Positions 2,045-53,419 of a stretch of DNA of 64,000 nucleotides are shown here, one piece after another (the stretch's first letter is position 1; the number at the start of each line of letters is the position of its first letter). This DNA is from Podargus strigoides (taxonomy: Eukaryota), in the NCBI GenBank assembly GCA_028020825.1, contig CM051638.1, forward strand, positions 14,272,861 through 14,336,860, written 5' to 3'. The translations under genes and the position numbers were made by a program. A model generated the notes under the pieces. It had not been told where the DNA came from. It did not search any database and saw nothing but the letters and a program-made list of their open reading frames with translations.

Positions 2045-2141
2045 GTGAGTGTCCCTCCTGTCCCCGCTCTGCCCCACATGCTGCTCCAGCCCAGCATGAG
2101 ATGCATCGCTTCTCACCTTCTGCTCCTTTCCCCTTGCCCAG

Positions 2142-8558: not shown

Positions 8559-8702
8559 GAGAAGTCCAAGCCTTTTACGAGGACCTGAAGGGCCATCAGT
8601 TAGTGAATAAAGTGTTCAAGTTCAGCATGGACAAACTGTACAACTTGCTTTTCACGGCCTCCCAGTTCCAGAGGGACTTCATGGAACAGCGGCGGATGTC
8701 TG
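8559..8702 (+). CDS. VASt domain exon (EVQAFYEDLKGHQLVNKVFKFSMDKLYNLLFTASQFQRDFMEQRRMS)
   Basis: Acceptor ccccacAG at 8557-8558 and donor TG|gtgagc at 8703; close match to the remembered GRAMD1B segment EVQAFYEDLSGRQYVNEVFNFSVDKLYDLLFTNSPFQRDFMEQRRFS. Confidence 0.8.
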
Positions 8703-9366: not shown

Positions 9367-9485
9367 GTATTGTCTTTCATCCCTGGAAGAAGGAAGAAGA
9401 TGGCAATCAGACCAGAGTGATATCGTATATCATAGCCCTCACCCACCCTCTGGCCCCCGAAACTGTCACTGTGACGGAGACGCAG
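9367..9485 (+). CDS. VASt domain exon (GIVFHPWKKEEDGNQTRVISYIIALTHPLAPETVTVTETQ)
   Basis: Acceptor tctcAG at 9365-9366 and donor CAG|gtatga at 9486; compare GRAMD1B IIFHPWKKEENGNQSRVILYTITLTNPLAPKTATVRETQ. Confidence 0.8.
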
Positions 9486-10472
9486 GTATGAGAAAGGGGA
9501 GCAGGGGTGTAATGCCTTGCAGAAACAGACCTGGGATTTATTTTCTTGTCTCGGGCATGCTGCTTGGCATGTTTTCCTTCTGCCTGTCCGTTTTCCTGTA
9601 CACATTTGTCTCGTATTAACTTGCTGCCCAGTGTCACTGCAAATGCAAATAGCTAATCTTGCACTCGCCCTGGGTTGCATTGCAAGGAAAGGACCGTAAA
9701 GTTCCCAGCAAAAGCAGTTGCTGGTGTTTGTTGAGCTGCGGTTAGTCCAGCAGACGTTATTCGTGAGCAGGGCACGAGAAAGGCAGATACTGTCTGGCCA
9801 GTCCTTCTGACAGCTCGACATAGAGAAGTCCGGGCTTTTTACCTGTTTAGAAAGGTAAAAAATGGGAGCATCTGCAAAGCCCTGAAAAGAGGTAAGAAAA
9901 GCCATGCTTTTTGCATATGGATGCGCAGTTCACTGTGTCTGTGCCCTTTGTGAGGCTCGTTCTAGGGCAAAGAAAGAAGCAGGTGAGAAGCGCTTGAGAG
10001 AAGTAATTGGCATGTGTTTGTGGTGTTTAGAATGACAGAACAATCTGTGCTAGAAAGGACCTCTGCTCAAAGCAGGGCCACCTTGGATTTTAGATCAGGT
10101 TTCTCCCTGACCAGCCAGACATCAGTTCAATGAGAAGAGGTAACGCTTGCGAAGGTCCCAAAGAACTGGTCCTCACGTGGCAGGGTACATAACTACGTCT
10201 CTGGAACCAAATGCTGGAGGTTGAGCTGCTGGAACCGAATGCCCCTTTGAAGGATGCCCTTGGGAAACATCTGAGTGAAACACTTGGCTTCCTCAAGTGT
10301 ATGCCTTCCCTTGAGCTGTTCGTGGAAAAAGTGCAGAGCTGGGGCTGGGGCATGGGTGTGGTCTCTTACCTGTGGTAGAGCTGTTTTTGTAAAGTGCCAG
10401 TCAAGGTGCCGATCTGTCAGAGCCCTGCTCTGACCAGACTAATAGTTGCCTTGCATGCTGTCTTCTATGCAG

Positions 10473-10615
10473 ACAATGTACCAAGCCAGCCAAGAAAGCA
10501 AGTGCTGCGTCATAGATGCAGAGCTGGTAGCTCACGACATCCCTTACCACGAATATTTCTCTCTCATTAACCGCTACACGCTGACTCGTGTTGCCAGAAA
10601 CGAAAGCCGGCTCAG
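10473..10615 (+). CDS. VASt domain exon ([48 protein letters not shown])
   Basis: Acceptor ctatgcAG at 10471-10472 and donor CTCAG|gtacac at 10616; compare GRAMD1B [48 protein letters not shown]. Confidence 0.8.
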
Positions 10616-11200
10616 GTACACGTCTTGTGGGATAAAGAGCTTTCCTGACGACCAAAAGTCACCTTTGGGTGGGAGTTTGCCTGTGTGGTGTTGCAGAAGG
10701 GGCTGGGGAGAAGTTAGGCTTATTTCTTTGTCTGTTGCTAGAACAGTCCTCTCATGGAGAGGGTTTACAGACTTTTCTTGCCCCCTTCTTGGAAGCAGTG
10801 GTTTGCAGGGCCAGTTGCCACACACAGGCAACTGCCTGTGCTAAGCCACAGGACATACTTCCGGGGACTGTGTCTCTGAGGTGCACGTGGGTGGCCAAGC
10901 AGAGGCACTGGGTACCAGGCAAAGCTCTAGGCTTTTGTGTTTAGCTTCGATCATTAATCTGAATGTCTGCCTGCCCCATGGCTGAAGGTCTCGGGCGAGG
11001 CTCTCTTGAGGCTTCCCTGCTACTGCCTTTGGAAAGACTTTTCATGCAGTGCTTCTCCTCGAGAAACACAAAGGGCTGAGACCATTCCAGAAAGAACTGT
11101 GTGCCTGACTGTTTCTCAGATATACATTGTCAAGGGGTTGTGAATTGACCTTGCCTCGAGGAAGCAAACTTGGGAGAATGACTTTCCTTTCTTCACACAG

Positions 11201-11304
11201 GGTTTCTACAGAGTTACGTTGCAGGCAACGGCTTTTGGGGCTGATGAAACCCTTCATCGAGAAGAATTTTTTGAGCATCCCAGAAGATCATTTCCGTTGT
11301 TTGG
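11201..11304 (+). CDS. VASt domain C-terminal exon (VSTELRCRQRLLGLMKPFIEKNFLSIPEDHFRCL)
   Basis: Acceptor cacacAG at 11199-11200 and donor TTGG|gtaaga at 11305. Confidence 0.75.
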
Positions 11305-11718
11305 GTAAGAGTGGCAATGACTGGAGCTGTGGCAATGACCCACAAACAGGGGCACCTTCCTTAGTTCATGCATGCCTCCCTGCAAGTGGGCAGCATGACA
11401 GTGTCATACCTGCTGCCTGCTGGGGATGAGACCTGGGAGTGGCTTATGAAAGGGGCCAGCCAAAGGTACTGCCCGAGCGTTAGTAGCACCTGCTGGAATT
11501 AATCAAGTCATCAAATCCTGCTCTCTGGCAGGAGCGCAGGCAGTCTGGGGTCAGAATTTGGCCAAAGGTGTGAGGCATCTGCAGTGTGTCCTCTGGCACG
11601 GGCCCCTCAGTCCCTGCCAACTTCTTTGGTCCAGCAGCTGTGCCATTAGAGGGCTTGAGTCTGCCTCTGCAAAGCCAGTGCCACACCTGATAAATGCTTT
11701 GCCTTGCTGTCTCTACAG

Positions 11719-11922
11719 AGAGGGGACTGACCAGACTTGAGAGCACATACCCTGCTGAGGTGCACGGAGAGTCCCCCAAAGGGAAAGGGAGCGAGCAATC
11801 GCCCGTGTGCCGGAGGAAGCAGGCCCGTGCCCAGCTGCTGATGCCACCCTCGGAGGAGGTGCCGAGTCCCGTGACCACCCCCACGCATGAGGGAGCTGCA
11901 CACAGACCCAATCAGGTGGCAG
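11719..11922 (+). CDS. Linker exon (ERGLTRLESTYPAEVHGESPKGKG...LMPPSEEVPSPVTTPTHEGAAHRPNQVA)
   Basis: Acceptor ctctacAG at 11717-11718 and donor GCAG|gtaagg at 11923; compare GRAMD1B ESELAKTESTYLAEMHRQSPKEK...LEEVMSPVTTPTDEDVGHR. Confidence 0.7.
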
Positions 11923-12144
11923 GTAAGGAACTGCAGAGCCCTCGCACTTGGGGATGCAGAGCTGAGTACCTCTGGAGGAAAACTGGAGCTTTGCTCGTGG
12001 CAGGTTAATGGGGAGAGGGCCCAGGTCTCTCCAGGGCAGGGAGGACGTGTTCCGCTGGAGTGAGATGGAGGGGTGGGGAGATGGAAAGCAGTTGTCCTCC
12101 CCATCAGGCAGCATTTCCTAGCCTAAATGCATCTGTCTCCTCAG

Positions 12145-12235
12145 CTCCCACTCGGCCACAGCATGTCCCTGAGGAGAGCCCCCGTGGCTTCCACCTGCAC
12201 AGCGTGTCCAAGCTGCTCCTCGTCATCGGTTTTGT
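12145..12235 (+). CDS. Exon entering the transmembrane segment (PTRPQHVPEESPRGFHLHSVSKLLLVIGFV)
   Basis: Acceptor ctcctcAG at 12143-12144 and donor TTTGT|gtaagt at 12236; compare GRAMD1B HIPEDTPNGFHLQSVSKLLLVISCV. Confidence 0.7.
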
Positions 12236-14442
12236 GTAAGTGAGATTGATTTATTTTTGTTTGCTTTCCTTCAGTCGGCCTTTAACAGCTTTGGTCCTTT
12301 CATGTTTCTGGTGTTCGGTGCTCCCCTACGCCCGTTTTTTCTCTCCCACACTTCTCTCTGGTCCCAAACTTGGCACAGAACAGAGGAGAGAAAAGCAGTG
12401 ACAGGCAGTAATGAATGAATGAAAATTGTTTGCTGTTTTGTCTGGCTTGGTCGTCCCAGCTTTTGCCAGCACTTAGCTGGTCACTGATTTGGCTCTCTAG
12501 GTTCTGGATCCTTTTTCATCAAATTGTATGTCGTTCCCCGTCAGTTTCGACCTTGTTTTAACCAAACACAGGCTTCCCAGAGCTGCGTGGTTTGGGGAGG
12601 CCTAAATGCAGGTCAGCTGTACTGTCTGGGACACAGGCAACACTGACAGTGGCAAGCAGGGCAAGGGGCAGCTGTGCAAGGAGGCAATACTTAGAAGAAA
12701 TCCAGCAAGTAGAAAGTCTTTTTTATTTCAGAGACTCCGTTGAGAGATTTTTCAATGACATCTGAAAACTGTGAGCTTTTTTCAATTTAAAAGAAGTCGT
12801 TTAATGTAATCTGCTGACAAACCAGCTGTTAGAATGAAAGATGGCCACGCAAAGCTCTCTGGGAGTCACGGTGCTGTCGCAGCAGGGCTCAGTATATGTG
12901 AGGAGTCTGTCTGTGGGTTACTTCTTTCCTCTGGTCGAGCAAAAGCTGTTCAGGTCTGGTCCTGGGCAGGGATTTGGATGAGAAATACCACCTCAGAGGG
13001 AAGCTGGACCATTTAGAGACGAGTTCTGCAAAATAAGGGGAGGAACACGTGAGAGATTGGCATGATTTAGTGCTGCAGTGGTTGCTGGGCAGGTGCTGTG
13101 AATCGGTGCAGTCTAAAGGCGCAGTCCAGATAGGTGGGTTTTGTCATTGTTTCTGGAACTGGACACATCCTGTTGACCCTGGAGGAACAGGAGAACTTGG
13201 GCACATTTTTTTATTAAGCTCCAGCCACCTTTGAGTGAGGTGGGAATAAGCTGTGTAGTCAGGTTTCTATTCCAATGGAGCTCCTTCCTGCATTTCCTTT
13301 TCCCAGTGGGCATAAAGACTGCAGAGGTTGACAGCAGCAACCCAGCAGGTTGCTGCAATGCTGAGCTAGGTAATGCAAAGTAATGTAGGGATGAGAAGAT
13401 AGCCTCGTGCTATCTTCTGCATCTAGACAGGTGAGATGCAATTAAGACGTTCAGCAGGAAGGCAGAAAAGCTTTAGGACAATCTCTCCTGGCAGTCTGCT
13501 AGCTTAGAGTGTTCCTAGAGCCCTCCATAATGTTTTCAGGATACTCTTCTGGCCAGCTGCCTTCTGCCTGGCTGAACTGGGGGACAGTGAGCTATTCTTG
13601 CAGCCAGACAGCACCACTGTTGAGAGCCAGGCACGAGGCTGTGGTTTTGGAATCTTTTCCCCGAGCGTGGCTGCTGGGAGGAGCGGGAATGCCCACGCGC
13701 AGCGGTGTGGGGCCAGGGGCGCAGTGCAGTGTCTGGGCAAAGTGCTGGTTTGCAGGGTGGCCTGGGGTGGTGTTCCCATCACTGGGTGCAGCAGGAGTGG
13801 GCAAGGCTGGATGCGTGCAGGCTGCCACATGCATTTCTGTGCCATGACAGTCTCCTGCATGGGTGTGCTTTGGGCTTGTCCACCCAGCTTTTGCTGAGTG
13901 AATTTCACCATGACTTGCAGGGACACGGTTATTTGTCTGTCCTGCTTGCCTCTCTTCCCACTGTTCCTTTCTGCCCCGCTCCCCTCCCCAAATATCTTCT
14001 ACACTGTCTGTGAGCCTTCTCTGCTCAGCCCAGTTTCTCCTATTCTCTGTCAGTCTCTCTCTAACCTGCAGCTACTCCGTCTTTTCTCTTCCTGCTCCCA
14101 TTAGGATCCGTTCCAGGTGCTGTCTCTCTCTTTTTTTACCTCTTTACTCTCCTGTTTCCCTCCCTTTCTCTGCATTCAGCATCCACTCATGCAACCTGTT
14201 CTGTCTCATCTGTCATCCCTGGCTTTCTGTCTGTCTGTCCTCCTTGCTCCCACATTTCTGCCCCCAGGTGAAGTTTGAGTTCTGATCACCTGGCCCTTAC
14301 TCACATTAAATTCCTCCTCACCTACAGCATGGACCTGGCTCCCAGACACCTTCTTAAAGCCTTGGGTGTTTTCCCAGGTGTGATTGGCAGGCAGTGGGAT
14401 ATGAAATGCCCCTAGAAAACGGACTGTTTTCATTATTTCCAG

Positions 14443-14550
14443 TGTGGTGCTGCTGGTCCCTCTCAATATGATGCAGTTCTACCAACTCCAGATGCTGGAA
14501 TATTCTACGCGGACATGCACGGCCTGGCAGGGCTTGCGGCTACAGGAAAG
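14443..14550 (+). CDS. Transmembrane and juxtamembrane exon (VVLLVPLNMMQFYQLQMLEYSTRTCTAWQGLRLQER)
   Basis: Acceptor tttccAG at 14441-14442 and donor GAAAG|gtactg at 14551; compare GRAMD1B LVLLVILNMMLFYKLWMLEYTTQTLTAWQGLRLQER. Confidence 0.7.
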
Positions 14551-15690
14551 GTACTGTCACACCTGCTTTGTCTCTGCCTCTTCTTGCATGTTTCCTAGAG
14601 TTGTTTGAGGCTTTCCCAGAACACCAAAGCCCTGGGCTCTTGTCTATGGTTAGCCAGCACTCTGGGCTAAAGCGTAGCAGTTAGTATCTCACCCAGGGCT
14701 CCCTGCCCAGCGGGGAAGGGAAATTGGGGAAAAAAGAGGAAAAAGCCCGGGAGCTGACGTTTGAACAAACTTAACAGAATAACAGGACTGAGGCAAGAAC
14801 CAACATAAAGCCTAAATGGTTCTACTCAGCCTAGTTCTCGATAGCAAGAGCAGGAACAGAGCACCACCACCAAGGAGCCTCAGGGAGAGGAGGAGGAACC
14901 CCCCCCTCACTGAGCTCCCTCCTTTTACCATGAGCATGCTGAGGTGGTGTGGGATGCAGCTGTGAGTCAGCTGCCTTGAGTGGAACTCTCAGCTGACTCG
15001 GGGCTGCTCATGGCTGCCTGCATGGCTGGCCCATGGGCTGTGCCTGGGAACCAGGACAGCTCTCTTGTAGATTCCTTACTCTTTGTGTCAAGGAGATGAA
15101 GCAGGTAGGTAGCTGAAGCTGTGGGGCCATCAGCATTTCCAGATCTGAAACTGCTGAGCAGCTGCAGCAGAAGACAGTGAGTTAAGGCAACCCCTGCTTC
15201 TTCCCAGCATCCTGTGAACGGAGGATGCTGTGCGAATTAGTGTTTTGCAGTCCTGGGCCAAGGTGGTCACCTCCCCTCCTTTGATGGCTCAACTTCCCTC
15301 TGTACGAAAAGCAGGGTCTTAGAAAGAACCCTCTGTACTGAGAGGAGAGTTTGGGCCTGTGACACACAATCAGCTTTTGGACAAGTGTGTTGAAGGGTGT
15401 GTGCGTCCAGATGTCAGCAAGTTGTTGGAGTGTGGGAGGCAGAGAGAGATTCCTAGCCCAGCTCCAGCTCCTCTGACCACTGGCACCTGCCCGAGGCCCC
15501 ATCCCATGGCTCCGGGCAGCCAGTCCCAGTGATCCTCCCATCAGCACCCTCAGTGCTTGTATCTGTCCTGATTCTGCTCCACTCAGCAGGCTCCAGCCTT
15601 GTTCTGGAGGGTTAACTGGGCCTGAAGGGAGGGGATCCACTGGGACTGCAGTTTCCCTGGATTCACTCTTGCTGGTGTTGTGTCTGACAG

Positions 15691-15808
15691 GTTCCCCCAG
15701 TCTCAGACAAAATACGCCCAGTTACTGGAATCTCAGCAGAAGTATCATGACTTGGAGCTACAAAACCAGCGTGAGATCATCAGATCTTTAGTGGTGCTTC
15801 TAGAGCAG
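15691..15808 (+). CDS. C-terminal helical exon (FPQSQTKYAQLLESQQKYHDLELQNQREIIRSLVVLLEQ)
   Basis: Acceptor ctgacAG at 15689-15690 and donor GAGCAG|gtgaga at 15809; compare GRAMD1B LPQSQTEWAQLLESQQKYHDTELQKWREIIKSSVMLLDQ. Confidence 0.7.
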
Positions 15809-16528
15809 GTGAGACCGCAGGGCCAGTTCGTGCTGTGACTCGAGGGCCACTGTGTTCTCCCAGCCACCCACTCGCAATCCTTCAGCCTTAACTAGTTCCA
15901 CTGTAGTCCATCAGGTGCGTCACTTCTGCTGCCGTCTCCTTTAGCTCCGTCTCTGACACAGCGGTGGGCAGCAGGTCCCAAGGGCTATTTGCAGGGTACT
16001 GCAGCTTCTCTGTCCCCTCATGGGGGTCCACGCACGTCAAGGAGAGAATCCTACAGGGCCAAACCCCTTCTGTTAGCACATTTTATAGCTAGTCTCTGGC
16101 ATCCCAGTTTGGAAAGCCAACTCTTGTGCCTCGGCCCTGGATTCATACCCAGTTTGTGTGGATGACAGGGACCCTCAATAGCACAAAGCCAGGGGCTTCA
16201 GTATCCGCTGCCTAAAAAGCTGGTTGTACACCAGGCTGCCTAGAACAGAATTTGTAACTGAAAGCTGCTCTCCCTACAGAGAGAGCTGATCACCCCATAC
16301 CTGATACTGCTTGCCCCTTCTCTGTTAGCTTGGAGAACGGTCTCTCCCGGGCTCCCATCTTCTCAGCCCACTTTTGTACATCCCAGCCCTGACGCGCCAC
16401 TCCCCAAACCCAGATGACTGCAGTATCAATGCTTTACACGGAAGAAGGAGGCACTGAGGGGGAAGGCAATCCTGAACCACTCTCACCTCTAGGGTGGCAT
16501 CACAGCGGAGCAATTTCTTGTCTTGCAG

Positions 16529-16660
16529 ATGAAAGATTTACTGATAAATCTTCAGAATGGCGTCGGGTCCCAGGACTTTGGGTCAGAACCAGAGGAGGAA
16601 CGGAAACGTTTGCACCAACAGGCAGCAGTGCAGGAGGCCAGAGGCCCCTCTGCAGTATGA
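16529..16660 (+). CDS. Terminal coding exon (MKDLLINLQNGVGSQDFGSEPEEERKRLHQQAAVQEARGPSAV*) with TGA stop at 16658-16660
   Basis: Acceptor tcttgcAG at 16527-16528; compare GRAMD1B MKDSLINLQNGIRSRDYTSESEEKRNRYH; ATTAAA-like polyadenylation motif about 30 nt downstream. Confidence 0.65.
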   Translation: MKDLLINLQNGVGSQDFGSEPEEERKRLHQQAAVQEARGPSAV

Positions 16661-17019
16661 GTAACTAGGTTATCTAAATTAATATATTAAAAATATACGT
16701 ACAGACCATAAATATGTGTATCATGTACTGATTTTCAGAGAAAGACAAAAAGCCTCCGTATGGGGGGGAAGGACTGCCCTCCAACACTGGCTGAAATGGA
16801 GCGTCTCAGGGGGAGCGTGGTGTGTGCGTGTGTGGCAGGGCTGTGCTCTCCCAGCACTGAGGTGTGCTTAGGGGGTGCACCTGAGTGTGCTCCCCCGGGC
16901 CCGTGCACCACTCTGCTGTCATATTCCTGGCTGTTTGTCTGTCTCTTCTGTTCTTGTTGTTTCAAAGGGAAGCATCAGAGTGAGTTTCCCCCCCCCCGTG
17001 CGTGCAGGACCCCGGCTGA

Positions 17020-17757
17020 CTAAGTCATGTTTGACCACCCTTATTGCCTTCTGTGAGGTAATAACTCGGTGGATAGATAATGGTAGAGCGGTAGATGTGG
17101 TTTATCTTGATTTCAGTAAAGCATTTGACACTGTCTCCCACAGCATCCTTGCTGTGGCCAATGGCATCCTGGGGTGTATTAGAAAGGGGGTGGTTAGTAG
17201 GTCAAGAGAGGTTCTCCTTCCCCTCTATTCTGCCTTGGTGAGGCCACATCTGGAGTAGTGTGTCCAGTTCTGGGCCCCCCAGTTCAAGAAGGACAGGGAA
17301 CTGCTTGAGAGAGTCCAGCATAGAGCCACAAAGATGATGGAGTGGAACATCTCCCTTCTGAGGAAAGGCTGAGGGAGCTGGGTCTCTTTAGCTTGGAGAA
17401 GAGGAGACTGAGGGGTGACCTCATTAATGTTTATAAATATGTCAAGGGTGAGTGTCATGAGGATGGAGCCAGGCTCTTCTCAGTGACATCCAATGATAGG
17501 ACAAGGGGCAATGGGTGCAAGCTGGAACATAGGAGGTTCCACATAAATGTGAGGAAGAATTTCTTCCCAGTGAGGGTAACAGAGCACTGGCACAGGCTGC
17601 CCAGAGAGGTTGTGGAGTCTCCTCCTCTGGAGACATTCAAACCCACCTGGACATGTTCCTGTGTGACCTGACCTAGGTGTTCCTGCTCTGGCAGGGGGAT
17701 TGGACTAGATGATCTTTTGAGGTCCCTTCCAATCCCTGACATTCTGTGATTCTGTGA
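17020..17757 (+). mobile_element. CR1 LINE 3' fragment (ORF2 C-terminus plus 3' UTR ending in (ATTCTGTG)n). It is about 98% identical to 52088-53330 but carries an internal deletion of about 0.5 kb.
   Basis: Segments such as aagtcatgtttgaccaaccttattgccttctgtgaggtaataactcggtggatagat match the large CR1 copy. ORF pieces are FDTVSH..., [63 protein letters not shown]. Confidence 0.85.
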
Positions 17758-18299
17758 CTGTGTTTATCTGCACGTACAGAGGGGACACTGACAACTTTCT
17801 CACCTTGCTGGCTCCAGGGCAGAGAGGTTTTGGCAGTTGCCGTCAGCAAGCCCTTACCAAACAGTTCCGCGCTTGGAGAGGAGGCCTCCAGGAGAACGGC
17901 TGTCGGTCTGTAGAGAGCAGATCTCACTGGCAATCACCCTCTGTACTTGTTGGAGCAGAAATACAATTTGCTGCCACGCTGGCCAGCCTGGTTCAGAGAG
18001 CAAAGCCCAGAATGTAAACGAGCCGCAATGCTTTCTCCAAACACTAGTTTGCCACCTCCTGTTCTTGGTACTGCATTAGTAGTGAAGGAGGTGGTGGGGA
18101 AGGGAGTATGTGCCTCCAAGGTGCGTGGGTGGAGGGGAGCCACACTGCAGAAAGCACACTTCCATCCCTTTGACTTGTCCCCTTTACATTTGCTGTACTT
18201 CTCTGCTCTCCATGTGCTTGGGCCCCTGCCATTAAGCCCTCCCTGCGCTGAAGAGCTACATCGGTGCTGAAAGGGCTGCTGCCTGTGCAGCTTCTCACG

Positions 18300-18420
18300 A
18301 GAGGGGGAGTACTGCGACCTGAAAAGACAACCCAAACTAGTATTTATTTGCAAGGAGGAAAGCCAAAAGGCAAACTCATCGCCTCCTTCTGAAGGACTGT
18401 GGGAACCAGCCATGTGTCAA
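18300..18420 (-). mobile_element. Short ERV-derived fragment homologous to the pol/env junction of the provirus at 24340-29944 (shared gaaagccaaaaggcaaactcatc..cctcctt; peptide GGDEFAFWLS)
   Basis: About 85 bp of similarity to 25185-25260; no LTRs detected. Confidence 0.3.
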
Positions 18421-19633
18421 CCTGAATTCAGGGCTCGGGGTGCAGAGCCCAGCACTTCAGCCAAACCCCACTGTGACTGGTTGGGATGCAGGGTGCTTGT
18501 TTGAACTTTCCCGTCGCACCCAGCCAGGTAGCTTAGGTGACGTGCGAGGCCCTCAAGCTCCACCTTGTTCCACACCAGGATTTTTCCACCTTCTGGGTGG
18601 CAGGAGGGAGTCACCCCTGTATTCCCTGGATCCAAAGGGTGCAGTTCTAGCTCGTCTGTTGTCTCTGGCTCCAACAGGTGCTGAAAGAGCAGGAAAAATA
18701 AAGATGAATAACTGGCCTTTGTATCTCAGTACCACCAACTCTCATCCGCACAGCTGGGTGACAAAGTCTGAGGAAAACCCTCACAAGCTCCTGCTCCTGC
18801 ATTCCACTTAGGCAAAGGCAATGTATGTGGCAGTAACCTGCTGATTTCTCCCAACCTGCCTACAATTTTTGTGACCGAGTGCTAAACACAACAAGTCCCA
18901 CAGAAGACGACTCACATTAGAAGGAGAGTGGATGAAGACAGATTATCCAAAAGACATTTAAGAGTGTGAAAGCAAGGTAGCAGTGGGAAAAACATGCCTC
19001 AGCAACTTGAGAGAACTGTGTATTGATGGCTATTTATTTAATTTAATGCTGCTGCCTACTGTAGTGCTCCCTGACGTGTTTCCAGGGAGGCTGCTGAAAT
19101 GGTTACTGTATAATGAAACGGGGTGCTGTTGCCTGGGAAGGGCATTCTGTGGCTCATTGTCCTGGCTCGGCTAGGGCAGGGTTAATTTCCCCAGCAGCTG
19201 GGAGGGAGCCCCCGCCGGGCTCTTCCATACCCGGTGAGGTCCCGTCCCGGTCCAGGCGCAGAGTTCATACAGATTTATTCAGATTTGCAAGCATGCAACG
19301 TGTTACTAAACTACATTAACACCTTCTCTCCTAAACCAAACGAGTATCTATGTTTGCTTTCACGAACCTAGAATCTTTCTTTTCAGGACTCCTCAAACAA
19401 GCAGTGTCTTTGAATTCTGAAATGACACAACTATTAAGAAAGTCCACATTGTGCAAGAAAGCAGCAGGTATGTTTTTCAACTTGGACTAAAAAAGGAAAG
19501 AGAAAAACAAAAACCGTTCACTGAACAGCAGATTAGCAGTAATGTTCCTCGTGAATCGGCAAGAGTGCCTGATGCTGAATATCTAACAGCAAATGCTGAA
19601 TTGGGGTTTAATCTTTTAAGGGTTTATTGGAGA

Positions 19634-20659
19634 TTAAGCTTCTTGCTGTGCTGGTCTCTTCAAATCCCTGATCCGTTTAACTAAGTAGGTCTTCTCATCA
19701 TTAAATTGTTCATCCTCGGTCCTGTCATTCTGAAACTTGCTGAGGAACTCAGTAAGTTTGGTCTGGTTCTTTAGAAGTATGTCTAATATAGGCTGTGTCT
19801 TGTTAGGATTGGCTACAAATACCTTCAACACATGAAAGGCCTCAAACTGAATGTTACGACTCTGGTCTCGTAGAAGGTTCATCGTTAGTTTGAGATTTTC
19901 AGGTTTACTGATGTACTTTGTCCTAATTGTGAAGTTGTGTCTGTCCAATAACAATTCACCAAGAACCATCAGTGACTGTCTCTTTGTCACGTAATTTTCT
20001 GAATGAAGCAACTTCTCATATTCACTGAAGAACCTATCGTAATGTTGTTCCAAAAATTCTGCACTTAGCAGCTTGTGTCTTGTCAGCAAATCCTTGCATG
20101 TGGCAAATGCATGTGAAGCAATGTCAAATGTTGACATTTCCACGTATCTGAAGAAATCATTGAATTGTTCTGACCACAAGATTTTTTTAGCAAGTGGCTC
20201 ATGCCTGATGCATTCTCTAAGCATTATTCCACAATTTAGAGCAATTTCTGGAGATTTGTACCCTTTTAATAGCATGAACAGTCTATTCTGTTGAGTGCAG
20301 ATGTATTCAACTGTGGGAGTTCTTGTACCAATTTGCCTTCTGAGAATGTTGTTGAAAATTTGCGCAACGTCTTTTTTGCCCTCCAAATCAATTAGCTGCA
20401 AGTCGGCTACTAGGGTACTAAGAAGACCACTGTTGTACAGCTCTTGAGCAAGCTGTGCCACAGCTTCTGTCTGTGGTTCTTTTTCATTTGTGCCATACAA
20501 GATTTCTTTCATGGCAACAAGGTTTTTTGAGACCTCCTCAGTGGCCTTTTCTGCCTTTTTGTCAGAGATATCTTGCTTTTCTAGAACTTCCATACTTTCC
20601 TTCAGGTTCTTCACTATGTCTGCAGGAGACTTGTGGGACTTGCCAAAGGGGAGTGGCAT
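19634..20659 (-). CDS. CAB39: CAB39 (MO25 alpha) processed retrocopy: complete intronless 341-codon ORF, about 8% amino-acid divergence from the canonical sequence, with a C-terminal extension
   Basis: One continuous minus-strand ORF (reported as 19634-20872, 412 aa) contains [47 protein letters not shown]...[28 protein letters not shown]. The parental gene is multi-exonic, and no introns interrupt this copy. Confidence 0.85.
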
Positions 20660-20696
20660 GATTGCGAGCCACAAGGTCTTCCTTCTCGCACACAGT

Positions 20697-20731
20697 TGGG
20701 GTTTCTTTTTTGTTTTTTTTTTTTTTTTTCT
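20697..20731. repeat. T-rich tract on the + strand (read as A-rich on the strand of the CAB39 copy), immediately 5' of the retrocopy start codon
   Basis: ctttttttgttttttttttttttttttcttttaaag; translates as [11 protein letters not shown] in the extended ORF. Confidence 0.8.
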
Positions 20732-21931
20732 TTTAAAGCAGATTTGCAGACAGGTGCTGACCGGGTCTGGTTCATCTGACTTGGTCAACATGTGGACCTG
20801 AATGATTTTGCTGAATGTGTAGGCAGAAAAAAGCATTTGGAATAACATTGTCTTGATCCAGGGGCTGGCCAACAGCTGTGTGTTGGGATTTTCCTACAAA
20901 AAAACCCAAGTGCAATATTCTATTTCCCATGTCCTTGGACGTAACAGGCAGCTTTTAACCACAAATGCCAGTGGAATGCATCAATAAGCAAGGTTCAGCC
21001 AAGTTCCTCTTGTAGATATGATTTCTAATAGGGTGCAAAAAGTGCTTTGCCTTGGCAAGCGTTTTGACTTACGCTTTTCCTCCTTTTTCCCTTTTTTTAC
21101 GTTGCTGATGAGCTGGTAAACTGAAGAGGAAATTTACCAGCAGGTGGTAGCAGTGTTTAAGATTTCTAGAACTGACATGTGAATCATGCAAGTTACTAAC
21201 ACATAGATAGAGAGTACAGACCACACAATAAATGCCTCTGCAAGTTTACCTTCATGGCCAGGTTCTTCCATCTTGATTGATGACAGATGGACATTTATTT
21301 GACACCTGTAAGACATTTCAAAGACTGCTTCATGTGCATGGTAATGGCAAAATAAGACGAAGAGGGGTTTGGGACTTCTTTTCTTGGTTTGTTTGGGGTT
21401 TTTTTTGAAGAGGTGAATTACTAGCCTAATGGTTCATCTTCACTGTAGTCATCATTTCGCCACGGTTCCCTCTGCATCTGCAAAGCAGAAATGCTTTGAA
21501 GCATTTCACATCAGAGGGTTTTGTTTGTTTTTTTTTTCATATCCACTTCAATTCTAGTACATTTCAGCTCTATCCTTTTATTCTATTTGGCTTCCTTTCT
21601 TGTAGTCATTAAAGTGAAGGGACAAAAACACACTCCATGCTATCATCCCTTTGTAATTACTTTTGTTAACCAAATAAATAATTGCAAACAATATGAGAGC
21701 CCTGGATGTTGTAGCACAAATAAAATTTGATTTTAACAGAACAACTTCTGTGTCAATGAGATAGTTCAGGGGTGTGATAAATCACCCCTGCACACCAGTG
21801 GTCAAGGGGGGGGTTACTCTCCCTGGAAGCTGTGACAACACATCCATGGCATTTCTAACACTGCTTCACATTTTACTCTTTCCTTCAAAATACAGCAGAA
21901 CTTTTCAAGCAGCAGCAGTTTGCTCCCCTAC

Positions 21932-22047
21932 CTTTGTTCTCAGAGATGATCTGTACAAGCTTGTAACCCTCCGGTGCCTCGGATTCCAGGTTGTGCTTCA
22001 CCATGGCTCTCTGGATGACAGCAGGAGCTTTGTCTTGGCAAGTTAGC
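21932..22047 (-). CDS. RGL1: RGL1 Ras-association (RA) domain exon 2 ([38 protein letters not shown])
   Basis: Minus-strand acceptor ccctttccAG and donor AAAG|gtagggg; matches remembered human RGL1 [39 protein letters not shown]. Confidence 0.8.
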
Positions 22048-24339: not shown

Positions 24340-24713
24340 TGAGGAGAAAAAACTGGACTCCGCACCATTCAGTGTGAATCAAACTGAAGACGTTTTATTT
24401 ACCTTGTCTGTCGCTTTTATACAATCTTACTTTCCCTAGACCCGGTCACGCATCATTTAATTGGTTAAAAGTCTCTAGCACAAGGTAAACATACAGCTCA
24501 GTTCAGTTCCCGTTGGTTCTTAAGTTCTTCTCCCGCAGTGTCCAATTGGTCACTCTTACCTGCTCACACCTGCATTCCTTAGGGAAGCAGTCATTGCTCT
24601 TTCTTATTTTTTCTTCCTTTGAAGTAGCTTCTAGAATGCAGCTGCGTACCTAGGCCAACATCCCGTATGGCTGGTTCACTATATGGTCATTTTCTTTTAC
24701 ATACATTCCTACA
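24340..24713 (-). repeat. 3' LTR of the class-II ERV
   Basis: About 98% identical to 29571-29944; the PPT is immediately adjacent at 24714-24740. Confidence 0.9.
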
Positions 24714-25538
24714 ATTCCCCCTTTTTCTTCTTGAGCCAGCCATACGTTCTTCATGGTGTATGTAATCATGCTTGTTACCTTTTTGAAAACACAAGGTACA
24801 ATCATTAATACAATAGTGACCAATAATAGGTGGAATTCAATAATAGGTGGAATTAACAAAGAAACAAAGTCTCTCACAGAAGAGATGGGAGATAACCAAG
24901 TCAATAGACTGATCATACAGAAGTAGTCCTCAATTGTTTCCCCATGAAGCCTCCATTTGCAAGTGCCAAACCTGACCGGGGCCCAGTTGCGGGGAGAGTC
25001 AGGAGGTCCTTCCCCAACAGGAAAACTCTGCAAGGTGTGTCCACCTCACAGACAGACACTCCACTCTCCCTGCAAGTGGCCCCAGTCCTCATTCCCAAAA
25101 CAGGACACCTGGCACTCATCCAATTTGGGGCATTTGGGGCTTGTTTACCCAAGGGCTCCCACCACAAGGCCGGCCGCACCCTGAAGGAAAGCCAAAAGGC
25201 AAACTCATCCCCTCCTTTCAGAGGACCATGGGAACTATCCATATGTCAGCCTAGGACATCTGCGAATCTGGTTCTGACAGCCATGGTTTCACCCACTTTG
25301 CCGGTATCCATTTGGATCCATGATCTGTAACAACACATACATATCCCCTTCCCCAGGTTATTAGCTGTGGCGGTCCTTCCCAAGCTCCTGTCACTCCATT
25401 TTTAACCATAACTTGACACTGTCCTTGTTTTATCTTGTCCAACTCCCCTTTCAATCCTGCTTCATGCTTCACGACTGGTGGTACTAGACTATCCTGTGGC
25501 AGACGTAAAAAGTTCAATACATATATAACCTTATTCAA
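24650..25538 (-). pseudogene. Remnants of the integrase C-terminus and an env TM segment of the class-II ERV (large pol/env deletions)
   Basis: ORFs contain WGRGYVCVVTDHGSKWIPAKWVKPW (integrase SH3-like) and the hydrophobic stretch LLIPPIIEFHLLLVTIVLMIVPCVFKK (membrane-spanning anchor). Confidence 0.5.
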
Positions 25539-26064
25539 TCTATCTGCAGGTGGCAGTCCTATTTCTCCCCCTTTTTGTTTTTGAAGCAGGCACTTGAGTG
25601 TTCTGGTTCATCCATTCTACACTAGCTTGACCCGTTGGAGAATGTGGAGTACCTGTAACGTACTAAGTGATGCAATGACCACTGTAAATATTCAGCTACT
25701 AAAGGTATTACTATAAAAGTCAGTTCAAAGCCAGCTATTTCTACAACTGTATGCCTACCTTTCATTACTAACTGTGCAAAGGCTTCTACTCGCGTAGTGA
25801 TTGTGTGTTTTGGCTGCAGTGACAAAAACACCCATTCCAAAATGTGCAGTGGGTCCTTCCCTGTAATCCACTGCATTATCAAAACAAAAAGATGTTGTTC
25901 AGGACTAATAATCCATAGCCCTATCCCGTACTCCAGCTTCCAGCGATGCGTGTAAGCTGTGACAATCTTAGTGCTTATGTAATTTCGAGCTTGCGTTGGT
26001 TCTTCTGTTAATGTCCGAGGTGCCTCAGCACCACCTCCTCCTTTCAACAGTTTCATTAGCGGCG

Positions 26065-26559
26065 CTAGCTCTGCATTGGTAAGTTACATACTGTCCTTAC
26101 CCAGTTAAGATCTCCTAACAATTTCTGGACATCATTTAGGGTGCATACTTCTGTTAGAATTTCTAATTTTTTGGGCCTAATGGTTGCCTTGGTAATTTCC
26201 CAGCCAAGGTACCTCCATACCTCTGTTTTTTGTACCTTTTCAGGAGCTACTTGCAGTCCCCCTAATTTTAGCGCTTGTTCCAGCTCAGCTATTAATTGCT
26301 CCCTGTTCAGCCGCTCCCCTGCTATCAGAATATCATCCATATAATGATACAGGAGTAGTTTCGGATATGCTTTTCATATAGGAGCAAGTGCCCAGGCCAC
26401 ATAAAATTGGCACATTGTGGGTGAATTTTTCATTCCTTGTGGTAATACTACCCAGTGATATCTTTTCATGGGTTCACATTTGTTTACTGACGGTACTGAA
26501 AAGGCAAATTTTTGATAATCATTTGGGTGCAGTGGAACGGTAAAAAAGCAATCTTTCAA
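26065..26559 (-). pseudogene. Reverse transcriptase fragments of the class-II ERV (frameshifted and truncated)
   Basis: [23 protein letters not shown]...[18 protein letters not shown] and MDDILIAGE motifs in separate short ORFs. Confidence 0.75.
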
Positions 26560-26591
26560 ATCAATAATTAATATGTCCCAGTTTTTTGGAA

Positions 26592-27311
26592 TTAAAAACC
26601 CTCATTGCTCGTAACCAATCGCGCCCCTATTTGACTTAGTGCATCACATCCCAATAGGCATATGGGGGCATTCATCACATATGGCCGCACTGTACATACA
26701 CTCCCATTCCGCAAGGTACATTGAAACAAGCGCATGCTAATTCTGGTAGACTGTATACCTCCCACTGCCATGACTGACGACGCAGGTACTTCAAGTGGCC
26801 ACGATGTTGGCCATGCATCTGGACTGACGATAGTGACATCAGTATCAAGCAACATAGTGATTACACAGGTACTGCCCCCTGGTTCTTTTAGTGTTACCTG
26901 CTGTGTTGGTTTTGATTTACCAATATCCATTGCCAAATAAATTTCTGCTTGACCTGTAGAGCCAAATCCTTCTGCTCCTCTTATGCGATTACCAGACACA
27001 GGCACTGCTGTTTTGAATGGCACGAGTTGTCCAATTTTTGCTCCTGTCGGTATGTGTACAGGGGGTGATGGCGTCCATACCATTATAGAGATAGTGCCTG
27101 TAAAATCAGAATCAATTACTGCAGGTAACACAAAAAGACCTTTTTGGGTTGTAGATGAACGCCCTAACAACAGGGCACTTAACTCATGTCCTAGCGGACC
27201 ACTCATATTAGTTGGGATACATTGTACCTGTGAATCAGTCAGTGTTGTTTCTATTGTTGTTTTCATATCCACTCGGGCACTCCCTGCTGTGGCGGTGGCG
27301 ACGCCATCCAA
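26592..27311 (-). CDS. pro ORF of the class-II ERV encoding a dUTPase and an aspartic protease (active site degenerated to DTD)
   Basis: [29 protein letters not shown] (dUTPase motifs) and [16 protein letters not shown] (protease motif); 239-aa ORF. Confidence 0.7.
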
Positions 27312-27553
27312 GCAGCCTGAGACCGATTTTGTGTCATCGCGCCTGGCCTGCGAGCATTCGCTATCCTATTCTTTCTCCTTTTGGAGCGATATTTACTAGC
27401 ATGGTGCCCATAGTTCTGACAGTGATTATAGACACCATCAAAGCCTTCCTCTGTGTTTTTGTTTTTTGGAGCTTTACATTGTACCTTAATGTGCCCATAC
27501 CTTCCACAGTTATGACATTTTGGGCCTCGATTACGGTTACCTTGTTGTACCAA
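27263..27553 (-). CDS. Nucleocapsid region with two CCHC zinc knuckles (CHNCGRYGHIKVQC, CQNYGHHASKY)
   Basis: Overlapping frame downstream of gag, consistent with a gag-pro frameshift arrangement. Confidence 0.7.
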   Translation of the reverse strand: MVQQGNRNRGPKCHNCGRYGHIKVQCKAPKNKNTEEGFDGVYNHCQNYGHHASKYRSKRRKNRIANARRPGAMTQNRSQAAWMASPPPQQGVPEWI

Positions 27554-27556
27554 GGG

Positions 27557-29392
27557 TCAGATAGCCGCAGCAAAAGCTGAGGCCATGAAACCAGCATGCT
27601 CTTCAGGTGTTCCTACCCGCGAACAAGCATCCATCATTTCAGCAATACTGGAGTTTCTAGGCAGACTCTGTAAAATACGCTTGCAGGTGGGGTTAGAATT
27701 TTCAACAGCTAAACATAAGAGTAATGCTTCTCGCACAGGATCAGATAAAGATGCCCTATCAAGCGCATTTTGCAACCGATCTAGAAATTGCATATATGGT
27801 TCATTTGCACCCTGTTTTACTGAGGTATATGGGGGTGTTGGTTTTCCATCCTCAGGGAGAGTCCTAAGTGCCTCTCTTGCCAGATCAGCGGATTGTCGCA
27901 GTATAGCAGGATCCAATCGAGCTTGGCGCTGGGCATCGGCAAAATCTCCCTGACCCATAAGCATGTCAATAGTCGCTGAGCGCAGTGGGTCACCAGCCGC
28001 ATGATCTAAGTTTGTTATTGCGGCAGATGCTACTGCATCCTGCCACTGAGAACGCCACAGAACTTCCTGCATTGGTGTTAGTGTCATTGACATAAGTACC
28101 CTACTGTCAAAAGGAGTCATAAGGTTAGTCAGGAAAATGTTATGAATAAACGATTGAGTGTATGGTGATTGTAGACCGTTCTGTTGTACTGACTTACGGG
28201 CTTCCTTAATTAACTCCCATGGGAAGCCCACCCAGTGATTCGGGTTTCTAGAACCTCCCGATGTCCCCCCCAGCATTACCGGGAATGCAGTTGGAAGGAA
28301 TTCCCCTTCGATTAATGCATTTTGAATAACTCCTCTCCATCTTTGAGCCGGATCAAATTCTTTCCCTGCATTTCCCGCCTCCGCCCCCCACTCCATCTCT
28401 TGTCCCAGCTTGTCCACCCCCCAACCACGGTCCTTTTGAAATCTTGCAATGATTTTCTTCTCCTCCTCCTTCAGTGTCTCTCGCTTGTGGATGTCCGCTT
28501 CTAACTTTTCCATCTTTTTCAACAGTTTTTGCGCCCAAACGGGCGGTTCGCTGCTAAGATCAGGCGGCTTGGCGGGGGAGGTGGGCGTGGGTGGGGTAGA
28601 AGGGGGTAGTGGTGGATAGTCAGTCCATTCACTCAGGTGAGGTGGTTCAGGAAAGTCTGGTTCAGGCGGTGGGGGGGGCGGCGGCGGCTCGGGCCATTGC
28701 TCGTCTGTGTCCGTTGCCTCTCCTTCCATCCCAGATACCTCTGCCAACGGGGGCGCCGCTGGAATAGGGGGGGACGGAACAGGCATTCGGTCGAACACTC
28801 TGATCCCGGCAGGGAACGCTTCCGGTGGCGAGGGCCCTGAAGCCGAGAACGTTCCGGCCGCTGGCGCAGTGTTCGGGGGGGGTGGCGGGGGAATGCCGAT
28901 CGTGCCGCTCCGCTGCGCTGAGTACGGCCCCGCCGCCGGCTGCCGCAGTGCGCGGTGGGGCAGCGAGGGGCGGGGGGGCGGAATGCCGGTCGAGCCGCTC
29001 CGCTGCGGTGGGTACGGCTCCGCTGCTGGCCGCCGCTGCCGGAGTGCGCGGGGGGGCGGCGGGGGGCGGGCGGGGGAATGCCGATCGCGCCGCTCCGCTG
29101 CTGCCCGCTCAACCTCCATATCTTGTAAAGTTGTTAGAATCAATCGCCAAGTGAAAGCTAACCCTGCTGAGTTTTTTTCTCCTCTACTGATTGCGTCCCA
29201 CAGGCACTTCCCGATTTCTTCCCAAATCTTAGTTTTAAAGGCATTTTGAGGCTCAGCAGGGAATCCGTGTTCCCGGCACCAAATTAACAGCCCCCGGAGC
29301 GCACGCTTATCGAGTTTAACTCCTCTCCTAGAGAGTGTCTGTAGGAGAATTTTCACTAAGGTACTTTCTTCTTTCGATAGTTTGTGCCCCAT
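27557..29392 (-). CDS. Intact gag ORF (611 aa) of the class-II ERV with matrix (MGHKLSK), a Pro-rich region containing an internal tandem duplication, and capsid carrying the major homology region (QGANEPYMQFLDRLQNALDR)
   Basis: Single ORF from ATG to stop with no interruptions; the MHR and the betaretrovirus-like N-terminus were recognised directly. Confidence 0.85.
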   Translation of the reverse strand: MGHKLSKEESTLVKILLQTLSRRGVKLDKRALRGLLIWCREHGFPAEPQNAFKTKIWEEIGKCLWDAISRGEKNSAGLAFTWRLILTTLQDMEVERAAAERRDRHSPARPPPPPRALRQRRPAAEPYPPQRSGSTGIPPPRPSLPHRALRQPAAGPYSAQRSGTIGIPPPPPPNTAPAAGTFSASGPSPPEAFPAGIRVFDRMPVPSPPIPAAPPLAEVSGMEGEATDTDEQWPEPPPPPPPPEPDFPEPPHLSEWTDYPPLPPSTPPTPTSPAKPPDLSSEPPVWAQKLLKKMEKLEADIHKRETLKEEEKKIIARFQKDRGWGVDKLGQEMEWGAEAGNAGKEFDPAQRWRGVIQNALIEGEFLPTAFPVMLGGTSGGSRNPNHWVGFPWELIKEARKSVQQNGLQSPYTQSFIHNIFLTNLMTPFDSRVLMSMTLTPMQEVLWRSQWQDAVASAAITNLDHAAGDPLRSATIDMLMGQGDFADAQRQARLDPAILRQSADLAREALRTLPEDGKPTPPYTSVKQGANEPYMQFLDRLQNALDRASLSDPVREALLLCLAVENSNPTCKRILQSLPRNSSIAEMMDACSRVGTPEEHAGFMASAFAAAI

Positions 29393-29570
29393 CTCCGCTC
29401 CCGGCTGCTCACCTCACTGGGTGTCGTGTCGTAACGTATGTTTTCCTCTCCGGATCGCCGTCCGATCCGCCCGGTCTCCGGCCCTGCCGTGCCGTCTATC
29501 TCCTTCTGGGCTTTTCCCCTGTACCTTCTTCTCTTGCTGCGCAAGTCGGTATCACGTCGGGGTCACCATT

Positions 29571-29944
29571 TGAGGAGAAAAAACTGGACTCCGCACCATT
29601 CAGTGTGAATCAAACTGAAGACGTTTTATTTACCTTGTCTGTCCCTTTTATACAATCTTACTTTCCCTAGATCCGGTCACGCATCATTTAATTGGTTAAA
29701 AGTCTCTAGCACAAGGTAAACATACAGCTCAGTTCAGTTCCCGTTGGTTCTTAAGTTCTTCTCCCGCAGTGTCCAATTGGTCACCCTTATCTGCTCACTC
29801 CTGCATTCCTTAGGGAAGCAGTCATTGCTCTTTCTTATTTTTTCTTCCTTTGAAGTAGCTTCTAGAATGCAGCTGCGTACCTAGGCCAACATCCCGTATG
29901 GCTGGTTCACTATATGGTCATTTTCTTTTAAATACATTCCTACA
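29571..29944 (-). repeat. 5' LTR of the class-II ERV, followed by the tRNA-Trp PBS at 29551-29568
   Basis: LTR identity to 24340-24713; PBS revcomp(atcacgtcggggtcacca)=TGGTGACCCCGACGTGAT. Confidence 0.9.
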
Positions 29945-30140
29945 CTACCCCATATCCCTCAGCACCTCATCTACACGGCTCTGAAATCCCTCCAGGGATG
30001 GGGACTCCCCAACTGCCCTGGGCAGCCTGGGCCAGTGCTGGGGAACCCTTTGGGGGAAGGCATTGTTCCTAATATCCAATCTAAACTTCCCCTGGCACAA
30101 CCTGACACCGTTTCCTCTCGTCCTATCACTAGTTACAATT
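29945..30140 (-). mobile_element. CR1 3' fragment (reverse orientation), right half of the copy split by the ERV
   Basis: ctaccccatatccctcagcacctcatctacacggctctgaaatccctccagggatgggg...cctatcactag continues the left half at 24255-24339. Confidence 0.7.
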
Positions 30141-33400: not shown

Positions 33401-34960
33401 AACCTACCTCTCCTCCTCAGTTAAATTCTGCTGCCTCTTGAACCACTAGATGAATTTTCGGTCTGGTGTCATGCAATAAATGTTGCATGCAGATTGCAAG
33501 AGCATAATTTGGGCAAGCACTTCAAATTCCTAAGAAAATGATAAAAAATAATTAGGAATTCTAATTAGAAAACACAATAAAGCCAGACTCATTCATATGC
33601 ATAAACATATGCAACAACAGATCCAGGACAAACTTAGTTTGACCTGAAGTTCAGTTTCAGTTGAGTAAATATTTCAAGAACCAGTTTTTCAAACAACGAA
33701 GACTTTTTGTCATTGTTGTTCCCCAGTATCCATAACATGCATTGAAATGTGAACATTTTATCAGACACACACATATCAGAAGCTTAACACAAGAAATTGT
33801 ACTTCACCACATGCTTTTCCCAAGTACCCACTGCAGTGCAGTGCCAGTGCAAACCCACCCAGCAGCAGCACTGGTGATTGTTCCTCTAGGAACGAGGGGA
33901 GCAAAGGCTCACAAACCCTTCAGGTTACCCTGCCTGCACCCCTGCGCTGGCCAGAGCAGCTCTGGGGGAGGAATCATGCTCTGGACTTGAGTGGTTCTCA
34001 GGCAGCAAGCAAGGGTAATAATTATGGGTGCCTGAGATGAAAGCACAATCTGATCCTTCCCAGCTGTGCATGTTGTGCACTCACACTTGCACCAGAGGAA
34101 CATGAAATGCTGCCCTTGAGAACACCACTTGCATACATGCTTTGCTAAAACAATTCTGGAAACCCCCATGTGTCAGAGCCACTTACAGAAGCAGGCTGCA
34201 GGAGCGGAGCCGAGCGCTCGGCATGGCTCAGAGGGCAGCTTTGCCACTGGTTTGTGTGAAGCTGGACTGATGGCCACGGAGACTCTCATGTATCTCACCA
34301 TCAGTATCCTGAGCTGTGCAGGTAGAGCTGGGAGCAGTTAAGGGAAGGAAGTGGCTCCATCACTGCCAAATCCAAGCGTGCTTTCAGACCCCAGAAGGGA
34401 GATTTGGCACGACTTCATTCCGACAGACGTAACCTCAGTACCTTTACTCCTACACAGCATTACTGATCTCTGAGCAACAAAGATCAGGCTGAAAGGAAAG
34501 ACTGATAGCACGTATTTCTCAGACCCGTGTACCTAGTTTGCTCTCTGCAGCCTTTTACCTACAAACTGCAGCACAAGGAATATGGTTACAAACTGTATCT
34601 TCTGGAAAGCAAAGGTCTCATGCCACCAGGCCCCGTTCACTCCCAACACAGGACATACACACAGAATGTATTCCCATGGACACCAAATGGGGGGAATGGG
34701 CACGCCTCAGGGGCAGAGCCCATGGAAATAAGTGGCCTGCAGCTCCTCTTCCCCTATTGCACACATCTGAAAAGCAGGTTCTCTTCCTGCACCACCGCCC
34801 ACTGAGGCTCACAGTGTTTCAGGGATCTTTTCTTTCCTCACTGACCTGCATTAAAGTTAGCAGTGTTGTATGAGCCTGAGCAAAGACAAACAGCCTCGCC
34901 CAGAGAACACTCTAAACCAGGGAGTCAATAAACTAAAAATCACAGAATATTCAACTTACC

Positions 34961-53330: not shown

Positions 53331-53419
53331 CAAGGATGGAGACTCCATAATGTGTCAGGGCTGCATGTGCCAGTGTTTGACTTCCCTTTCTGGTAAAACA
53401 AGGGTGGTTATTTGTGTTT

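Follow-up and report, generated by a model that had tools for sequence, protein, structure and literature searches.

An intact but apparently neutrally drifting retrocopy of CAB39 in a bird genome

The 64-kb stretch of DNA analysed here (the window) carries on its minus strand an intact open reading frame of 341 codons for CAB39 (MO25), from an ATG at 20659 to a TAA at 19636-19634, and this raises the question of whether the frame belongs to a working gene or to a copy of a messenger RNA that happens to be still open, and of how such a copy came to lie where it does. We consider, with a probability of about three in four, that it is an ordinary lineage-specific CAB39 processed pseudogene in a non-passerine bird, a reading based on comparison of sequences. 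The first-pass annotation had described an uninterrupted CAB39 coding sequence of full length, and that description is correct; its coordinates, 19634-20872, are those of a mechanical TTG-to-stop frame, of which the CAB39 part starts at the ATG. In full, the CAB39-derived DNA occupies 19266-20686 (Table 1).

The identity of the copy is not in doubt. Its product matches the Pfam Mo25 profile (PF08569) over positions 3-332 of 332, with E=3e-137 and a score of 457.7 bits (cut-off 31.2), and it aligns residue for residue, over its whole length, with human MO25alpha (PDB 1UPK; E=5e-210 (4.9e-210)). The fit of CAB39L to the same protein is weaker (E=7e-164 (6.6e-164)), and by these alignments the copy clearly descends from CAB39 and not from CAB39L. 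No second CAB39-like sequence was found in the 64-kb window. The copy shares the full-length Mo25 domain of CAB39/MO25alpha (PDB 1UPK, 2WTK) at 95% identity, while differing from it by 17 replacements, 8 of them at vertebrate-invariant residues including the STRAD anchor F92, and from the CAB39 gene by the absence of introns.

Table 1. Features of the CAB39 retrocopy and its surroundings, in window coordinates
Feature	Position	Strand	Remark
CAB39/MO25 ORF with TAA stop	19634..20659	-	95% identity to bird and turtle CAB39
Parental 5'UTR remnant, 27 nt	20660..20686	-	ahead of the ATG; CAB39 homology begins at 20686
Parental 3'UTR remnant, 368 nt	19266..19633	-	AATAAA at 19279-19274, end 8 nt later
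First ~106 nt (~110) of an ERV LTR	19155..19265	+	71% identity to an owl ERV LTR pair
Candidate TSD, left copy (GCGCAGAGTT)	19256..19265	.	ends exactly at the junction
Candidate TSD, right copy (GCACACAGTT)	20688..20697	.	8/10 match to the left copy
A-rich tract (T-rich on the + strand)	20702..20734	-	15 non-parental nt from the retrocopy
Last recognisable RGL1-like exon (RA domain)	21933..22046	-	owl/pigeon homology stops at 21809
RGL1-like exon with in-frame stop (KFI*WF)	33440..33529	-	owl and pigeon have Q there

For the parental side of the comparison we used the CAB39 genes of five birds, namely Syrrhaptes (L005), Columba guinea (L006) and three similar genomes with a common protein whose source name is a songbird (L001-L003). 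In each of the five, CAB39 consists of 8 coding exons spread across 18-20 kb, and for this reason the possibility that the window holds the parental gene itself is rejected. In the window all 8 exons are contiguous, at 84-97% nucleotide identity to the five bird genes, and the joins between them coincide exactly with the parental GT-AG splice points. The copy is the product of a spliced CAB39 mRNA, as its reported lack of introns had implied, and the term 'retrocopy of CAB39' is fully supported. Both of its ends are defined. The 5' truncation falls inside the first coding exon (exon 2), which in the parental genes has another 14 nt at its 5' end, following a ...CAG acceptor, and the upstream 5' non-coding exon of CAB39 is not present at the copy's 5' end. 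At the other end the parental 3'UTRs run on (TTTGCACTTACC...) beyond the point where the retrocopy stops, and what follows the AATAAA and its 8 nt is LTR-derived sequence, with at most 'AA' between, so that the 3' poly(A) tail already recorded as missing is indeed absent. The copy probably has no promoter of its own and probably makes no functional MO25.

The surroundings of the retrocopy are composite. To its left, the sequence is homologous to a divergent GRAMD1B-like Podargus locus (2172-18018) and to the Psophia GRAMD1B locus (7214-19154), the Podargus homology being lost at 18018, at a CR1 private to the Podargus locus. An exon at ~10.4 kb, GRAMD1C-like by its PDB matches, was reassigned as GRAMD1B-like after a protein search. 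To the right lies a gene of RGL1 type on the same strand as the copy, with RA-domain exons at 22893-22822 and 22046-21933; across 22969-50127 it is colinear in exons and introns with a snowy-owl RGL1-like locus (78-85% identity), which itself ends at the equivalent of ~22900, and colinear also with the band-tailed pigeon's RGL1-like genes (70-83%), which are arranged in tandem and are without CAB39. The 2.65 kb in which the retrocopy sits (19155-21808) form part of neither block. On its right side, nothing corresponding to the 1.1-kb segment 20698..21808 occurs in the pigeon, owl, Psophia, Podargus or CAB39 loci or in the rest of the window, and the segment gives no matches to transposable-element proteins; its first part (20698-21100) gains no support as the remainder of the LTR, the alignment to the owl LTR being no better than that of shuffled or random sequence. 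The A-rich tract that had been singled out as an odd feature 5' of the ATG is present in this segment, and it lies outside the CAB39-derived sequence and so is no part of the copy. A search for signs that it is the tail of a second retro-transcript gave no canonical poly(A) signal upstream, within a segment that matches nothing.

The gene on the right is no functional RGL1. Its exons reach no more than ~80% identity to RGL1 proteins in the databases, one exon holds an in-frame stop private to the window, and homology to the pigeon gene stops ~50 bp short of the pigeon terminal exon. The first-pass annotation had not found a terminal exon either, and neither an ANVFYAM-type motif nor a tblastn match to it occurs in the 64-kb window; a degenerate version at about 21780-21720, proposed on an 'EL...FY' resemblance, gains no support from nucleotide alignment. 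What had been called RGL1 is a divergent, truncated RGL1-like pseudogene, and what stands of the placement first described is that the copy lies on the 3' side of this gene in the same orientation; 1.27 kb separate it from the last RA exon.

Directly adjoining the 3' end of the retrocopy is the start of an ERV LTR (TGTCCTGG... at 19158) in plus-strand sense, antisense to the copy, which matches the LTR pair of an ERV at the snowy-owl locus (L007) with E=1e-9 and a score of 37, against 7.2±2.6 for shuffles. This fragment begins where the Psophia homology ends (19154), and its other limit coincides exactly with the 3' end of the retrocopy, where the LTR breaks off. Exactly at both junctions there is an imperfect 10-bp direct repeat, GCGCAGAGTT / GCACACAGTT, with 8/10 matches and an empirical p=0.03, which is a candidate target-site duplication (TSD); the earlier statement that no flanking TSD was identified has to be qualified accordingly.

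The window also contains a plausible source of reverse transcriptase. CR1 is represented by an intact 859-aa ORF2 and by insertions at 17021-17763 and 50288-53328, the first of which is a 97-98% identical copy with an empty insertion site in Podargus and Psophia. CR1 has been recently active here, and it is the only non-LTR reverse transcriptase of this kind seen in the window. Its insertions resemble the retrocopy in having no poly(A) tail and in joining their targets by short or microhomologous sequence, whereas neither the CR1 3' hairpin nor the (ATTCTGTG)n microsatellite is present in the retrocopy. CR1 reportedly depends on a 3' structure of its own (hairpin, microsatellite), so that mobilisation of mRNAs in trans would be unusual (PMC5470649). 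Given the junction features, a staggered-cut, target-primed insertion into the LTR suits the locus. A spliced CAB39 mRNA was reverse-transcribed, giving a copy from 27 nt before the ATG to 8 nt past the proximal AAUAAA, and this copy integrated antisense to, and directly beside, the start of the ERV LTR, between a GRAMD1B-like gene copy and the truncated RGL1-like pseudogene. Target-primed integration by CR1 reverse transcriptase acting in trans, leaving a ~10-bp TSD and no poly(A), is the most likely form of this last event, and is the weakest-supported step in the sequence.

A different origin for the insertion would be capture of a CAB39 cDNA during the repair of a double-strand break or rearrangement, the cDNA filling the place where the GRAMD1B-like and RGL1-like blocks meet, with neither endonuclease nor target priming involved. 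Truncation at both ends, the missing poly(A) tail, the LTR cut off at ~110 nt, the loss of the RGL1-like terminal exon at the same place and the 2.65 kb without counterpart in either syntenic block would all follow readily from such an event. It is nevertheless the less probable account, one to which we would give perhaps a minority share of belief, since the direct repeat at both junctions favours a staggered-cut insertion, and the junction of the two blocks may long predate the retrocopy.

The ERVs themselves might be held responsible, through a template switch between ERV RNA and a co-packaged CAB39 mRNA that yields a chimera. Retrocopies mediated by LTR elements account for 4/10 young chicken retrocopies and, like the present one, are truncated, have no poly(A) and carry an LTR at the junction (Tan et al. 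2016, PMC5131818); this same window also contains young ERVs whose gag and pol are intact, LTR sequence lies right at one junction, and the copy is 3'-truncated. The antisense orientation of the copy to the LTR argues against this route, template switching being expected, by inference, to give same-sense chimeras. The copy further departs from the LTR-mediated kind in that LTR sequence is recognisable on one flank only and the candidate TSD flanks the cDNA itself. Neither an LTR pair nor, beyond that imperfect repeat, direct repeats bracketing the copy were found in the window, and the flanks hold no ERV protein remnants (best match E=0.11). A stretch of 68 nt matching ERV1 (18356-18423) was considered as a trace of capture and set aside, as it is isolated in a flank that is mostly common to Psophia. 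We regard an ERV-mediated origin as improbable.

Third codon positions give an indication of the source lineage. The copy differs from the Syrrhaptes and Columba genes at 19-20 of them and from the songbird-type genes at 40-52, and the smaller number of differences to the former suggests that the source CAB39 was non-passerine. In the left flank of the window, identity is 86.8% to a Podargus strigoides locus and 78-80% to those of Psophia and owl. With a divergence of 2-3.5% from its parent, the copy seems to be younger than the split from the frogmouth lineage. Divergence at nonsynonymous sites is about 2%, and the age of the copy is perhaps of the order of 10-20 million years, an estimate that rests on commonly quoted avian neutral rates.

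Whether the copy has been under selection since its insertion was judged from its private changes, by which we mean bases that do not occur at the same site in any parental gene of the five. There are 17 nonsynonymous and 8 synonymous private changes, 13/368 in the 3'UTR, where there is also one 2-bp deletion, and 0/27 in the 5'UTR; the figures for synonymous and UTR changes are maxima, as the source lineage's own CAB39 falls outside the sample of five. For the same reason dS is an upper bound and dN/dS a lower bound in the estimates obtained by the NG86 method from 818 nonsynonymous and 205 synonymous sites: dN=0.021, dS=0.040 and dN/dS=0.53. The departure from neutrality is not significant, either under uniform expectations (p=0.14) or when weighted by the observed spectrum (p=0.34), and neither is that of dN relative to synonymous and UTR changes together (ratio 0.57, p≈0.10). 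Over the corresponding 1.4 kb, silent changes specific to the lineage number 9-12 in each of the Syrrhaptes and Columba genes. By our own estimate, which is not a computed value, ~12 neutral changes would be left in the copy after subtraction of a parental-lineage share, matching the dN rate at omega=1, and the remaining ~9 silent changes would match the lineage-specific changes of Syrrhaptes and Columba. Among the five parental genes constraint is extreme: their coding sequences show 17-60 nucleotide differences, their proteins 0-1 amino-acid change.

The replacements themselves point the same way. They number 17 relative to the sauropsid CAB39 protein (18 relative to human), not the ~28 first counted: F3L, A24E, F92L, I126R, E135K, I159K, Y167N, D183H, F188C, K231M, L232V, M246R, M259T, K266Q, F278L, I303T and Q329R. 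T301 is the ancestral state in birds and turtle. Four of these had been named before, F3L and F92L correctly and D183H and F188C under the numbers D182H and F187C, together with a changed C-terminus, which is in fact the same as in CAB39. As many as 8/17 of the replaced positions are 100% invariant among 120 vertebrate CAB39/CAB39L proteins, and with 44% of all positions at least 99% conserved in those 120 homologues, the placement of the replacements looks random (p=0.81) and shows no avoidance of conserved positions. Several bring charged residues into conserved hydrophobic positions, and I126R, I159K, M246R, F188C, D183H and E135K are radical changes. F92 is one of the anchors for binding of STRADalpha, which is abolished when it is mutated, and K231 contacts STRADalpha (PMC2686265).

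It is tempting to see in so long an open frame a functional retrogene, that is, a lineage-specific MO25 paralogue under weaker or altered constraint and possibly with changed partner binding, which was one of the two alternatives originally offered. The frame is free of frameshifts even though the much shorter UTR has had an indel, and the point estimates of dN/dS (0.53-0.57) are below 1. After 25 substitutions the frame would be free of nonsense codons with a probability of 0.28-0.51, and some 2-3 indels would be expected in the coding sequence, scaled from the one deletion per 368 nt of UTR, where 0 are observed; taking both together, we roughly estimate that a strictly neutral copy would keep its frame open with a probability of 0.02-0.13, which is mildly low and leaves room for weak constraint. 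Intact frames such as this are kept, however, by ~27% of bird retrocopies (27% in bioRxiv 10.64898/2026.06.26.734816), and the 341 codons are probably still open by chance. Against a retrogene, neutrality is not rejected, dS is inflated by unsampled changes of the parental lineage, invariant positions are replaced at the random rate and charged residues occupy conserved hydrophobic sites, the STRAD anchor is changed, and neither the parental promoter nor the 5' exon came along. The exact protein, taken with five alternative starts, is also absent from a collection of 15 billion proteins that includes assembled transcripts, which is weak negative evidence; five transposable-element ORFs of the window are likewise missing from that collection. 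A functional retrogene thus seems to us improbable. Alignment to avian CAB39, with the junctions placed at 19266 and 20686, gives a dN/dS of at least 0.53 that is not distinguishable from 1, and with random and radical replacements favours the other alternative, neutral drift, over altered constraint: as far as these substitutions indicate, the copy has probably evolved since its insertion by essentially neutral drift, with no detectable constraint on its protein.

Its position downstream of RA-domain exons had led to the suggestion that the copy lies in the last intron or 3'UTR of RGL1, and it might accordingly be co-transcribed with that gene or spliced onto it. The shared strand and short distance are compatible with this, and the last RA exon keeps its GT donor where the normal acceptor exon is gone. 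The placement is unsupported, given a gene with no terminal exon, homology that ends at 21809 and a premature stop, and co-transcription with so truncated a gene would be quite improbable. Substitutions on the coding strand of the copy, moreover, start from T in 20 cases versus from A in 8 (p=0.007), an asymmetry that would be expected, by inference only, if germline transcription runs the opposite way. Equally improbable is the combination in which CR1 mobilised a cellular mRNA in trans into an ERV LTR, with a 10-bp TSD and priming past the AAUAAA without poly(A), and the product is in addition a possible MO25 variant with altered STRAD/LKB1 binding (F92L, M246R).

As an ordinary processed pseudogene, the copy resembles those described from birds in the chicken genome paper and in the RCPedia/VGP survey (bioRxiv 10.64898/2026.06.26.734816) in being intronless, 5'-truncated, promoterless and under relaxed constraint, and is unlike the usual kind in having no poly(A) and a 3' end only 8 nt after the AAUAAA. 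As a gene it is of little importance, the evidence pointing to a non-functional copy, and its open frame alone is no ground for annotating the locus as CAB39 or as a CAB39-like protein. Bird genomes lack L1 and retrocopies are rare in them (bioRxiv 10.64898/2026.06.26.734816; PMC5470649), the scarcity being due to the absence of L1 and to CR1 only rarely copying cellular mRNAs. Each well-delimited bird retrocopy can therefore inform on which reverse transcriptase makes them, and the present one, with clean boundaries, no poly(A), an LTR at the junction and a possible TSD, could serve for such a test, provided that an empty site is found in a relative.

The intronless CAB39 copy (minus strand, 19266-20686) has an odd substitution spectrum among its 38 private substitutions, that is, bases found in none of five parental bird CAB39 genes. 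Transversions outnumber transitions 23 to 15; on the coding strand T>G and T>C each account for nine changes, substitutions from T number 20 against 8 from A (p=0.007), and AT-to-GC changes number 24 against 5 in the reverse direction. The retrocopied cDNA is AT-rich (38% GC) and the surrounding region GC-richer, and it is possible that GC-biased conversion of such a cDNA in such a setting lies behind the spectrum; germline transcription antisense to the retrocopy is likewise a possible cause. Three of the private substitutions fall within 5 nt at 19966-19970 (codons 230-232), changing CTTAAGCTT to CTGATGGTT and producing K231M and L232V; this cluster straddles the former exon 6/7 junction and looks like one multinucleotide event.

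A 68-nt motif occurs both in the downstream flank of the retrocopy (18356-18423) and in the post-pol region of the first endogenous retrovirus (25185-25252), with 84% identity between the two sites, and either copy opens an ORF starting M..SH.P..GGDEFAFWLS. The flank around the former site is mostly ordinary sequence, common with Psophia. The retrovirus itself lies in an intron of the RGL1-like gene, its LTRs are 97.9% identical to one another, and the colinear owl locus is without a counterpart. A search of 52800-61500 turned up no LTR pair for the second retrovirus.

Annotated features of the window
Feature	Position	Strand	Remarks
GRAMD1B-like exons, divergent	~7970-15000	+	VASt domain; compared with Podargus and Psophia loci L008 and L009
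Second CR1 copy	17021-17763	+	5'-truncated; 96.6-98.5% identity to CR1 at 50288-52867
RGL1-like gene copy	21809-50127	-	compared with band-tailed pigeon (L004) and snowy owl (L007) loci
First ERV	24340-29951	-	381-bp LTRs; intact 611-aa gag, protease, truncated pol
CR1 LINE	50288-52867	+	uninterrupted 859-aa ORF2, endonuclease and RT
Second ERV	53864-59260	-	long open frames: gag 620 aa, pol 975 aa plus 174-aa integrase C-terminus

The RGL1-like copy belongs to a divergent gene family common to owl, pigeon and the bird studied here, whose pigeon members are tandem copies on a 56 Mb chromosome; the copy in the window carries a premature stop private to it and has lost its terminal exon. The GRAMD1B-like exons are ~72% identical to GRAMD1B of Psophia and Copsychus, itself near-invariant, and share intron read-through sequence with Podargus model P0157; they may represent a duplicate or a decaying orthologue. 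A tandem array of ~15 copies of a 51-nt unit (43485-44268) shows up as a repeating 17-residue peptide in ORFs of both strands, and GC-rich stretches at 1-4000 (0.57-0.63) and 60000-62000 (0.61) may be CpG islands or promoters.

The truncated CR1 copy was inserted at a target with CTGTGA microhomology, and its insertion site is empty in the compared Podargus and Psophia loci. Together with the intact ORF2 of its near-identical relative, this empty site points to recent CR1 activity.
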